Positions 2,740-6,188 of a DNA stretch of 6,188 bases are shown piece by piece (position 1 is the stretch's first letter; the number at the start of each line of letters is the position of its first letter). The stretch lies in the IMG/VR virus record IMGVR_UViG_2537561709_000010, one strand, 5' to 3'. This DNA comes from a virus. Taxonomy: Duplodnaviria; Heunggongvirae; Uroviricota; Caudoviricetes. The notes under the pieces are model-generated. The model did not search any database. It was not told the DNA's origin and was given only the letters and a program-made list of their open reading frames with translations. The position numbers and the translations under genes are program-made.

Positions 2740-2955
2740 AAAAACCTCTTTGTTATGACCTATCGTTATTTTATTTGATATTCCTTTATCTCATTATGCA
2801 TAAAGGCGCAATGTTCATGCAAAAGCAATCACAATTGTACCCCCAACCCAATTATTTGCCACAATATACACAAAGCACATTGATACTATCTAAAAACTCT
2901 GCTTTATTATTAGTAATACCTACGAAAGTCGGTGTTATTTTTTAACCTACCATTC

Positions 2956-3005
2956 AAAATACGTGACATACACCATTTTGCTCATAATAATTTGTCACGT
3001 ATTTT
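2956..3005. repeat. 50-bp dyad element: perfect 13-bp inverted arms (AAAATACGTGACA / TGTCACGTATTTT) around a 24-bp spacer
   Basis: Seen directly: 2956-2968 aaaatacgtgaca and 2993-3005 tgtcacgtatttt are exact reverse complements. Each arm carries an A4/T4 tract on its outer side, the arrangement of a bidirectional intrinsic terminator, but the spacer is long for a loop. About 200 bp downstream of the ybcK stop and 215 bp upstream of the ybcL start. Confidence 0.4.
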
Positions 3006-3203
3006 CAGTATTTGAATCTGCGACCAAGAGTTCTCACCTAACAAATGATTAAGATTGTATAGCTCATTTACTACCCCAATACAGCCGTACAAAACTCGCT
3101 TGTGGGAGCAAACAAAGTAATTACCCATTAAGTTTCGTTAAAGATAATTAATTCTGTCTTGCACTTTATCATCATAGCATAACTTAAAATCCGAGATCAT
3201 TAT

Positions 3204-4731
3204 TTAGAAATAAATCTCACCATCAACCATATATTTGAGAGCACTTATCGCCTGCTGGGCAGATATTACTTTCATTAAAGGATAGTGTTTAAAAACAATG
3301 CCATTCATAAAATAGATATCACAGGTTTTATTATCCGTATTAATTATGATTTTTTCGAATGTTTTATAGGCAAGTGTACGGCATAACTCTCGTCCATTTT
3401 TACTGGTTAAGTCAATAGCATAAAAATCACTGAATGAATTTACACCTTTACTCTTCAAAGTTTTCAATGATACCGAAGCCCTTCGTAATTCCTTATCTAA
3501 TAGTCTTATTTTCTCTGCTATAGCGGTAACTTCAGGCGCGACAGACAATGCAACGATTAAATTATTAATTTTCATCTGAAGCTCAATAATTTTTAACTCT
3601 AAAGTTTCATTAGCATCTTTCTTGTTTTCAACTGGTTGAATTTTGCTACAATTAAAAAGCAATTCATTAATGATATTATAATCAACCAAATCTCTCTTTA
3701 TTGATGGCCTGTCACATCGATGTAATCTTCTCATCGGACAAACATAATAGCCATGCAAACTTCCAGATACCGCATGAACAATCATGGTATTACCACAAGC
3801 CTCACACTTCATAACTGTTCGAAGTAGATTTATTAGCATAGGATTCTTGCTACTATTGCTAATACCAAAAGGTGCCAACCGAATTTCCTGTACAGCGTAA
3901 AACAAATCATCTGATATGACTCTGGGATAATAGCCAGCGATTTCACTTATCCCTTTCCCTCTTGCACGATATGAAGGTACGCATATACCTATCAGAGCTT
4001 TATTCGCTAATAATTTTTCAATTACAGAAGGCCCCCATGCACTTTTCTTTTCCTGAGAAATTCTTTACAGCATGATCATTTAAATACTTGGCTATTGCAT
4101 TCAATGAGCGCCTTTCCATCCTGAGTTTAAAAATTAGCTCAATAGTTTTCACCCTGTCGGGGTCTGGAACAAAAGCCGTTCTTTTGTCATCTAAGGAGAG
4201 CCATCTCGGACAAGACGCCGTCATAATCGTACCTGATTCCAGTGCATCCTGCCGTTTTTTCTTCCATGATAATTTAACCCGACTTGACTTTATCTCGCTT
4301 TCTTCATTTGCCCTTTGTGCTATAAGTATGGCTTTTATTAATGAATATGGCTCATTCAAAGAGTCAATATTATAGACTGTATTGTCGCAAAGAGTTATAA
4401 CATCAATACCGTGATTCAAAATCAATTTCAGACGTTCAATCGCTTCACCGACTTTTTCTCTTGAAAGTCTGTCCAGACTTTCAACTAACAATGTAGTTCC
4501 TGGCAATATATAACCATGCTCTATAGCATCTAAAAATTCCGAAAAAGCTCCTGATTGTGCATGCTTTCCTTTGAATGCACTTAATCCTAAATCTTCATAT
4601 GTTATGGTATCAAGATAATAATCACTATTTACCTTTAACCATTCAGCAATAAGTCTTCTCTGTCGGTTTAATGAGTCGCCAGACATCTGACCTGGTGATG
4701 AAAATCGCATATATGCTATGGCTTTTTTCAT
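3204..4731 (-). pseudogene. ybcK: Large serine recombinase (ybcK-like), interrupted by a +1 frameshift in this sequence
   Basis: Two same-strand ORFs: 4018..4731 carries the resolvase catalytic domain (YMRFSSPGQ with the presumed catalytic Ser; ESLDRLSR motif), and 3204..3905 carries a zinc-ribbon (CEACGNTM…HGYYVCPMRRLHRC) and coiled-coil region. The downstream frame stays open upstream to 4067, so both frames are open across 4018-4067. Total span is 1528 nt (3x509+1), consistent with a 508-aa protein carrying one extra nucleotide. Confidence 0.7.
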
Positions 4732-4975
4732 GGTGACACCTGCTAACTTATGCTTTTATAAACCTTAGTGGTGAGATATAATTTTTGTTTAATTTTTATT
4801 TAAAAAGACAATTACGATCACACTATCTTGAATATACAACAATAATCGTATTGCAATTTGCTTACGCAATAATCTTGAAGGCACAAAAGAATACACAAAA
4901 ACTAAAAACATTAACAAAAGCGGCCCATGTAAAGATATGAACCGCCATATTGCAGTCTTTTAAAAGAAATTATTT

Positions 4976-5375: not shown

Positions 5376-5678
5376 TCATTGTGTACCCATTGATGTTCTT
5401 TTATATACCCTCAATACCCGTTTCATCGCGGCACTCTGGCGACACTCCTTAAAAATCAGATTCGTGCTCACCTTTCCTTCCCGTTCTTCTCTGGTAGCGA
5501 ACCGGTAATACACCGTTCGCCAGACCTTACCATCAACGACCAGGATTCCTGCCCGCGCCATTTTAGCCGCAGCCTGATTTATGCTGGTTACGGTTGCGCC
5601 TGTTACCGCGGCAACGTCCTGTGCACAGAAGCTCTTATGCGTCCCCAGGTAATGAATAATTGCCTCTTTGCCCGTCAT
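5376..5678 (-). CDS. ren: Ren protein, lambda ren homolog (100 aa)
   Basis: Track ORF 5376..5678: MTGKEAIIHYLGTHKSFCAQDVAAVTGATVTSINQAAAKMARAGILVVDGKVWRTVYYRFATREEREGKVSTNLIFKECRQSAAMKRVL… is near-identical to lambda Ren over about 90 residues, with a different C-terminal tail. ATG at 5678..5676 overlaps the P stop (ATGA). Confidence 0.85.
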   Translation of the reverse strand: MTGKEAIIHYLGTHKSFCAQDVAAVTGATVTSINQAAAKMARAGILVVDGKVWRTVYYRFATREEREGKVSTNLIFKECRQSAAMKRVLRVYKRTSMGTQ

Positions 5679-6188
5679 ACACTTGCTCCTTTCAGTCCGA
5701 ACTTAGCTTTAATTTCTGCGATCTTCGCCAGAGCCTGTGCACGATTTAGAGGTCTACCGCCCATAACAGGAAGTTGTTTTACTGGTTCAGGTATCGTCTC
5801 ACCACGGTTAATTCGCGCTGTCATACAGGTCAGTTCATCGGCAGCCTTGCGCCGTAATTCCGCGTCAGTCAGCGCATTGGCCCGCATGTTCTGGTACAAG
5901 TTGGTAACCAACCAGTAATGCGCGTTCGATTTCCACGGATAAGACTCTGCATCCGGATACAGGCCACGCTTCCGGCAATACTCGTAAACCATATCAACCA
6001 GCTCGCTGACGTTTGGCAGTCCGGCGATAACGGATGCTTCTTCCCGGCACCATGCAACAAACTGCCCGGGTGATGGCAGGAATGGTCGATTCTGCCGACG
6101 GGCTACGCGCATTCCTGCGTTAACCTGTTCCATTGTGGTGATCCCGTTTTCCCGGAAAGCCAGAACCCACTGGCGGCGGATTTCGTTC
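5675..6188 (-). CDS. P: Replication protein P, lambda P homolog, C-terminal part (5' end beyond window)
   Basis: Track ORF 5675..6133 (MEQVNAGMRVARRQNRPFLPSPGQFVAWCREEAS…KAKFGLKGASV) matches the C-terminal ~150 aa of lambda P. The frame stays open upstream to the window edge; hand translation of 6134-6187 gives NEIRRQWVLAFRENGITT, which also matches lambda P. Stop TGA at 5677..5675. Confidence 0.85.
   Translation of the reverse strand, partial: NEIRRQWVLAFRENGITTMEQVNAGMRVARRQNRPFLPSPGQFVAWCREEASVIAGLPNVSELVDMVYEYCRKRGLYPDAESYPWKSNAHYWLVTNLYQNMRANALTDAELRRKAADELTCMTARINRGETIPEPVKQLPVMGGRPLNRAQALAKIAEIKAKFGLKGASV

Follow-up and report, generated by a model that had tools for sequence, protein, structure and literature searches.

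Genomic context

The window, by which we mean the whole 6,188-nucleotide stretch of viral DNA that was analysed, is the nin region of a DLP12-type lambdoid prophage of E. coli. All of its genes lie on the minus strand, in the order replication P′, ren, emrE, ylcJ, ybcK, a spacer holding the dyad element considered here, ybcL, ybcM, ybcN, ninE and ybcO. The names given in an earlier note on this DNA to the recombinase (ybcK) and to the adjacent ybcL–ybcM pair concur with the RefSeq annotation of E. coli O157:H7 and K-12 records and with Pfam, which places a PBP/PEBP domain in ybcL and an AraC helix–turn–helix in ybcM. The 464-bp spacer between ybcK and ybcL is 100% identical to that of E. coli O157:H7 and 99.4% identical to that of K-12.

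The product of ybcK (3204–4731, minus strand) matches the Pfam families Resolvase, Recombinase and Zn_ribbon_recom and the PHROG category 'integrase' (E = 4e-120), and is therefore assigned as a large serine recombinase (LSR). In the window the gene is a pseudogene: an extra T (+1) in a T-run near 4043 (4030–4050) splits it into open reading frames of 237 and 233 amino acids, while K-12 and O157 TR01 carry an intact 508-residue version. A stretch of some 70 nt that follows the stop codon (3138–3203, minus strand) is common to all ybcK arrangements and is strongly diverged. Upstream, the 3′ end of emrE carries a terminator-like hairpin (minus strand, 4920–4945; GCGGTTCAT...ATGGGCCGC then TTTTGTTAATGTTTT, d-score 0.0), the sole minus-strand hairpin in the window that the classical terminator criterion picks out; phage Turner has a better-formed version of it (GGAGGCTC...GAGCCTC).

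The ybcK–ybcL locus is bound by H-NS. A bicyclomycin-sensitive, that is Rho-dependent, 3′ end region has been mapped at NC_000913.3 position 568,940 (Adams et al., 2021), equivalent to about position 4692 of the window and only 39 nt into ybcK; transcription of ybcK in K-12 is thus halted by Rho almost at its start. Coordinate frames for this locus are mixed in the literature, U00096.2 and NC_000913.3 being offset by 776–777 bp. The positions of Gao (2021) and Shimada (2014, 2017) behave as U00096.2, those of Adams (2021) and Fitzgerald (2023) are in the.3 frame, and we converted with NC_000913.3 = LR881938 + 776.

The dyad element

An inverted-repeat scan placed the left arm of the dyad, AAAATACGTGACA, at 2956–2968, an asymmetric 24-nt spacer, TACACCATTTTG|CTCATAATAATT, at 2969–2992, and the right arm, TGTCACGTATTTT, at 2993–3005. 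The arms are complementary at 13 of 13 positions and the whole spans 50 bp, exactly as the earlier note had described. They cannot be extended since positions 2955 and 3006 are both C. Within the spacer only three of 12 positions are symmetric, and the dinucleotide at the exact centre (2980–2981) is GC. The stem is preceded by an A4 tract and followed by a T4 tract, and the flanks (TTC and CAG) are without duplication. The element lies 199 nt past the ybcK stop codon (3204) and 217 nt short of the ybcL start (2739).

This is the longest close-range perfect inverted repeat of the window, the runner-up having arms of 11 bp. A repeat of at least 13 bp with a spacer of at most 60 arose in one of 300 dinucleotide-preserving shuffles of the window. 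The opinion that such arms are unlikely by chance in 6 kb holds at that scale, but a frequency of 0.3% per 6-kb window means that a few such repeats are to be expected by chance in every genome. We regard the dyad as a real, previously unannotated and ordinary feature.

Some smaller elements were noted during the same survey. A 10-bp perfect G+C-rich inverted repeat, GTCACCGGAG-N9-CTCCGGTGAC, lies between ybcM and ybcN at 1288–1316; it has no T-tract and its outer bases also read TGTCAC/GTGAC. Within the ybcK coding sequence, at 4461–4484, there is an 11-bp perfect inverted repeat with a 2-nt spacer, of the type GAAAGTCTGTC CA GACAGACTTTC. On the plus strand a 29-residue open reading frame (2963–3052) has its GTG start codon within the left arm of the dyad and is hydrophobic over its N-terminal half (MTYTILLIIICHVFSVF...). 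This frame lacks a Shine–Dalgarno sequence and is probably AT-rich noise with the superficial shape of a type I toxin.

A mosaic joint between two gene modules

Among 5,426 complete genomes the dyad was found in 675, all E. coli, and it also occurs in 40 viral contigs and in three phages, always in a single sequence context with at least 98% identity. Each of the 675 genomes holds one copy, and none was found elsewhere. A MITE or IS-like repeat was considered and rejected, the element being single-copy in each of these genomes and lacking a flank duplication. The recombinase gene is more widespread than the dyad. It occurs in 1,422 of the 5,426 genomes as 1,521 copies, and 56% of these copies are not accompanied by the dyad. 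In phages 4A7, Perceval and Turner and in contigs L086–L089 a YbcK 92–100% identical to that of the window is encoded with no dyad nearby, and homology to the window ends at the ybcK stop codon or about 70 nt beyond it.

Comparison of these arrangements delimits an orphan segment of about 240 bp (2895–3137) that holds the dyad, with edges at 2894/2895 and at approximately 3134–3195. The segment is confined to the DLP12-type arrangement, in which it separates ybcK from ybcLM, and is missing from loci without ybcK as well as from the four other ybcK arrangements. No relatives of it were found in phages, in plasmids or beside YbcK homologues. In 34 full-length copies aligned from the 40 viral contigs and the reference loci we distinguished 16 haplotypes; the dyad has no variable site where about 0.8 would be expected, and the alignment therefore has no power to reveal constraint or covariation. 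Across the 675 genomes the dyad region is at least 99% identical, and conservation and covariation supply no evidence for a function.

An open frame of 52 codons occupies the part of the segment that adjoins ybcK (2982–3137, minus strand; 48 residues if counted from the ATG at 3128). The mosaic breakpoint marks the start of the frame, with the preceding stop codon at 3140–3138, and its TGA stop falls within the loop of the hairpin described below. At the local AT content stop codons would be expected about every 13 codons, compared with 52 open codons here, and the GC fraction of the frame is 0.38 against 0.28–0.31 in its flanks. These features suggest that the frame could be what is left of the 3′ part of a gene since lost. 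Searches for a parent gene gave no match in Pfam, in PHROGs or by tblastn against phages, and none in collections of 5.8 billion proteins (word-indexed) and 1.8 billion proteins (exhaustive HMMER).

The position past the ybcK stop codon behaves as a slot for variable cargo. Besides ybcLM it may hold an opposite-strand esterase of the alpha/beta-hydrolase type or an open reading frame related to the C-terminal part of the P22 antirepressor (phrog_7640), the loci concerned being L137 6028–7420, L138 4737–5990 and L087 7438–7788, all downstream of ybcK. The esterase module of 4A7 and Perceval is preceded by 26 nt left over from an emrE-type 3′ end (L137 6310–6335); in 4A7 this second copy appears to be a gene remnant that arrived with the module. 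In some E. coli (L083 6156–6160; L084) emrE, ybcL and ybcM lie between fliE and yedK, with a gap of 168 bp between emrE and ybcL and with no ylcJ, ybcK or dyad. We considered whether the indel of about 2,074 bp that distinguishes these loci from the window (2895–4968) was an LSR insertion, a view that proved unsupported, the junctions showing microhomology at 10 of 12 positions only (ATTAAAAATAAT / ATTACTAATAAT). Deletion is equally likely because the 'insert' opens with the terminator-like hairpin of emrE itself. Inverted or direct repeats shared between the two flanks of ybcK were no more frequent than chance.

More distant members of the recombinase family illustrate how such genes travel. 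In L090 a YbcK homologue of 59% identity and the accompanying KGG and DinI genes (2,980 bp) are enclosed by a direct repeat, about 200 nt long with 86% identity (5652–5851 and 8633–8831), of the 5′ part of a DUF1367 (nin-region) gene. Such a layout is the pattern of an integrated element bearing its own copy of the start of its target gene. When three homologues are compared (L131 7933–9530 against L005 and L090), 76% nucleotide homology extends from 68 nt upstream of the start codon to exactly the stop codon, and the gene therefore moves as a tight cassette. The L131 homologue sits between Mu/P2-like tail genes and ssrA–smpB. A 'CATGCAGTAT' lead common to L131, L013 and L014 was discarded, since the flanks are non-homologous and in L013 the entire 46-bp element, spacer included, is a near-perfect palindrome. 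That palindrome (L013 12676–12721; GTCATGCAGTATATAG-CCTCGGCACCGAGA-CTATATACTGCATGCC) is on a Pantoea plasmid, 1.17 kb downstream of a 43%-identical YbcK homologue; L131 contains one related 10-mer, in the interval from the recombinase to ssrA.

The RNA hairpin

In RNA folding, which the earlier note had proposed as a check, transcripts of either strand are predicted to form a stable hairpin. Over 70 nt the plus strand folds at −14.9 kcal/mol (z = −4.6) and the minus strand at −18.9 kcal/mol (z = −3.8), both more stable than shuffled sequences; across the various folds the energy ranges from −14 to −19 kcal/mol. In the minus-strand RNA the spacer contributes an added helix of 6 bp closed by a 7-nt loop, and the hairpin is retained in a fold of the complete 348-nt ybcK 3′ region.

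Intrinsic terminators have a G+C-rich stem of about 5–14 bp, a loop of 3–8 nt and an uninterrupted U-rich tract immediately 3′ of the stem. The dyad has five G–C pairs among 13 and a 24-nt loop, and its tail reads UUUUGAAUGG, or UUUUCAGUAU when A:U pairs are opened (nT 3.3–3.4). The d'Aubenton-Carafa score is −27 to −81 over the two strands, compared with +30 and +42 for two canonical controls; the negative values result from the long loop (24 nt), a stem rich in AT and a tail of four U. Likewise, −ΔG per nucleotide is 0.24–0.34 for the dyad versus 0.64–0.73 for canonical hairpins. A terminator consensus scan of the window gave no sites, and Rfam covariance models run against the whole window gave no matches at E ≤ 1. 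The proposal of a bidirectional intrinsic terminator can accordingly be kept only in a weaker version, on the strength of the stable hairpin; against it stand the scores, the empty consensus scan and the lack of a convergent gene. The dyad does not have the properties of a canonical bidirectional terminator. With nothing convergent on the plus strand, bidirectionality would be without purpose, and only termination of ybcK-sense transcripts could matter.

The location, on the other hand, is of the terminator type: the hairpin follows the ybcK stop codon, holds the stop of the 52-codon frame in its loop and is 95 nt ahead of the −35 element of the ybcLM promoter. It shares with the intrinsic terminators at the boundaries of lambdoid morons and modules an A-tract/T-tract hairpin set between co-directional units just upstream of the next promoter, and a loop that holds the stop codon of the upstream open frame. 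It differs from them in its AT-rich stem, its 24-nt loop, the placement of four U residues within the stem, negative d on both strands and the lack of a mapped 3′ end. Hairpin equivalents are absent from the other ybcK arrangements. An unrelated phage contig (L144) carries an identical 9-bp stem with a 9-nt loop followed by six T, which indicates that these arms can form a terminator-type hairpin of canonical design.

For K-12, where the locus is H-NS bound and halted by Rho, the supplements of Adams et al. (2021) list neither start sites nor 3′ ends at NC_000913.3 570,5xx–570,8xx. Transcript ends at the dyad, which would have spoken for termination, are thus missing from this data set. The absence is weak evidence because the locus is silent and, with the Rho stop 39 nt into ybcK, few transcripts would reach the dyad.

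Protein binding and promoter activity

The idea that the dyad is an operator of the AraC-family regulator YbcM draws on its symmetry and its nearness to ybcLM, and the binding data refute it. ChIP-exo identified 12 YbcM sites, the strongest of which, 'upstream of ybcLM', has a signal-to-noise ratio of 357 (Gao et al., 2021). This footprint (U00096.2-frame 570,015–570,048) maps to 2807–2840 of the window and none of the 12 sites falls on the dyad. The footprint overlaps the −10 element of the ybcLM σ70 promoter (GTGGCA-17-TACAAT; minus strand, 2834–2862), which was located by genomic SELEX (Shimada, 2014) about 95 nt downstream of the dyad. Although they share an intergenic spacer, the YbcM site and the dyad belong to different mosaic modules, the dyad being 116–165 bp further upstream; the separation is at least 116 bp in either coordinate frame. 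The ybcLM regulatory stretch (2894 and below) is kept in L083 and L084, which have neither ybcK nor the dyad. The arms are 37 bp apart from centre to centre, about 3.5 turns, and so would present opposite faces of the helix, which also argues against a YbcM operator.

A site for some other dimeric DNA-binding protein of phage or host, or an antisense promoter, is in our view highly improbable. A promoter-like sequence, GTGACA-17-AATAAT (plus strand, 2963–2991), matches the consensus at 10 of 12 positions within the dyad and would direct transcription antisense into ybcK, but matches of this kind are at background level (five found against 3.9 expected), no start or 3′ end maps to NC_000913.3 570,5xx–570,8xx, and the RNA polymerase SELEX peaks centre on the ybcL promoter instead. 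A peak for the RpoS holoenzyme is at about 2813. The TGTCAC present in the arms is similar to half of a PhoB site, but nothing in the spacer scores as a pho box, which has two direct repeats at a distance of 11 bp. A PhoB ChIP-seq site has been reported at NC_000913.3 569,907 with the motif TGTCACATCGATGTAATC, in intragenic, H-NS-bound DNA where binding is transcriptionally inert (Fitzgerald et al., 2023). Once the coordinate frames had been reconciled the peak was seen to rest on its motif at 3710–3727, inside ybcK, and PhoB was dismissed as a ligand of the dyad.

Relationship to the recombinase

The earlier note had raised the possibility of a relic recombination site for YbcK and had at once objected that the half-sites of such enzymes are only a few base pairs apart, not 24. 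That objection does not apply to large serine recombinases. A serine-integrase dimer contacts about 50 bp of attP, with zinc-ribbon motifs at positions 16–24 of each half-site, and att sites require a non-palindromic central crossover dinucleotide for polarity (Rutherford, 2013). For an LSR attP of some 50 bp with outer motifs, a centre of 24 bp is normal. If the dyad were an intact or relic attP-type site, a YbcK dimer would hold the outer arms through its zinc ribbons and cut at the centre, and the integrase gene with its attP would be a cassette carried as a passenger of the lambdoid nin region.

The geometry does fit this idea. YbcK has the full set of LSR domains in addition to its PHROG integrase match, and the dyad, 199 nt from the ybcK stop codon, is a 50-bp site with an asymmetric centre and with arms at half-site positions 13–25. 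Similarly, attP sites of serine integrases (A118/LI, phiC31 and Bxb1, and Ec03 and Ec07) are about 50 bp in length, have symmetric outer zinc-ribbon motifs around an asymmetric centre and lie beside the LSR gene. For Ec03 and Ec07 of E. coli the attP sites were reconstructed computationally (Durrant et al., 2022), and they have a matching design of perfect outer arms and an asymmetric centre; Ec07 is 40% identical to YbcK.

The more specific comparisons go against it. The dyad accompanies only 675 of the 1,521 ybcK copies, and four other arrangements with a YbcK 92–100% identical lack it. The GC dinucleotide at the exact centre is self-complementary and, if crossover is at the centre of the dyad, would set no polarity; the inner half-sites, which would form the recombinase-domain region, are symmetric only at the three of 12 positions noted above. 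Every copy, in the 675 genomes and the 40 viral contigs alike, is complete and points the same way, with no half-dyad junction and no recombination products; the spacer orientation, identical in every copy, also led us to reject an invertible switch. No arm-like partner was found upstream of ybcK or at the edges of the indel. Beside 20 family members of 37–61% identity there is no shared motif or k-mer above the AT-rich background, and the 13-mer arm, which the earlier note had thought worth seeking next to ybcK homologues, is absent from all of them. The attP of Ec07, the only family member with a reconstructed site, is unrelated in sequence to the dyad and lies immediately upstream of the start codon, whereas the dyad is downstream of ybcK. 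Attachment-site copies of the attB kind with shorter spacing were not found in viral contigs, and the six unrelated palindromes encountered are consistent with chance. Neither the dyad sequence nor the YbcK accession is in the att catalogue supplements of Durrant et al. (2022). The notion of a relic site therefore retains its geometry and fails on co-occurrence, centre, junctions and partner arms; we judge an intact or relic attP-type site to be improbable. A functional YbcK attP, which would give DLP12-type phages a second, complete serine integrase–attP cassette in the nin region, is more doubtful still. Such phages already possess a tyrosine integrase.

Origin of the dyad

Two readings remain to be set against each other. 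The one that we tentatively prefer, at somewhat less than even confidence, is that the dyad is an RNA hairpin inherited from the end of a gene and caught at a mosaic joint, where it would act at most as a weak terminator or 3′-stabilizing element on ybcK-sense transcripts. The segment of about 240 bp would be orphan filler caught between two phage 'moron' modules, emrE–ylcJ–ybcK and ybcLM, the latter of which has an independent promoter and is autoregulated by YbcM. The dyad is a lineage-specific hairpin that would derive from the 3′ end of a lost gene, and such an origin appears the likeliest because the 52-codon frame starts at the breakpoint and stops in the loop. In the ybcK-sense (minus-strand) transcript the 13-bp stem with the 6-bp helix on top, at about −17 to −19 kcal/mol and ending in UAUUUUGAAU, may, upstream of the ybcLM promoter, serve as a leaky terminator or hinder 3′ exonucleases. 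The only activity that the sequence itself supports is at the RNA level and on the minus strand.

The other reading is that the dyad has no selected function, being a chance or mutational quasi-palindrome, produced for example by template switching, in AT-rich filler silenced by H-NS. Taken alone this is on the unlikely side, yet it is nearly as likely as a gene-end hairpin. The element would look perfect because the module is young and nearly clonal, in keeping with its one sequence context at 98% identity or above in the genomes, viral contigs and phages that carry it, and the diversity is too low to show constraint. The blank Rfam search, the want of a canonical terminator and of any mapped protein site or transcript end, the binding of the region by H-NS and the few repeats of this kind that each genome should contain, at one in 300 shuffled windows, are all compatible with an accident of sequence. 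Against it stands an excess of structure: arms paired at 13 of 13 positions, symmetric A4 and T4 tracts, a position between two transcription units and the stop codon of an open frame in the loop, together with a shuffle probability of about 0.003 for the window.

Implications

The dyad matters little in itself, and its context is more useful. Three annotations that lacked support can be removed: that of a terminator acting in both directions, that of an operator for YbcM and that of a recombinase site regarded as established. The element now has its proper place within an orphan mosaic joint. The ybcLM promoter and the actual YbcM site belong to a module separate from that of the dyad.

Should the dyad prove to be an attP after all, K-12 itself would carry an uncharacterized serine integrase together with its site, a potentially useful tool, and a functional site would point to capture or exchange of cargo beside ybcK (ybcLM, the esterase and the antirepressor-like genes) or to second-site integration. 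For the family as a whole, the ybcK clade comprises phage-type LSRs that lambdoid nin regions carry as passenger cassettes, and the slot directly after the stop codon takes varying cargo.
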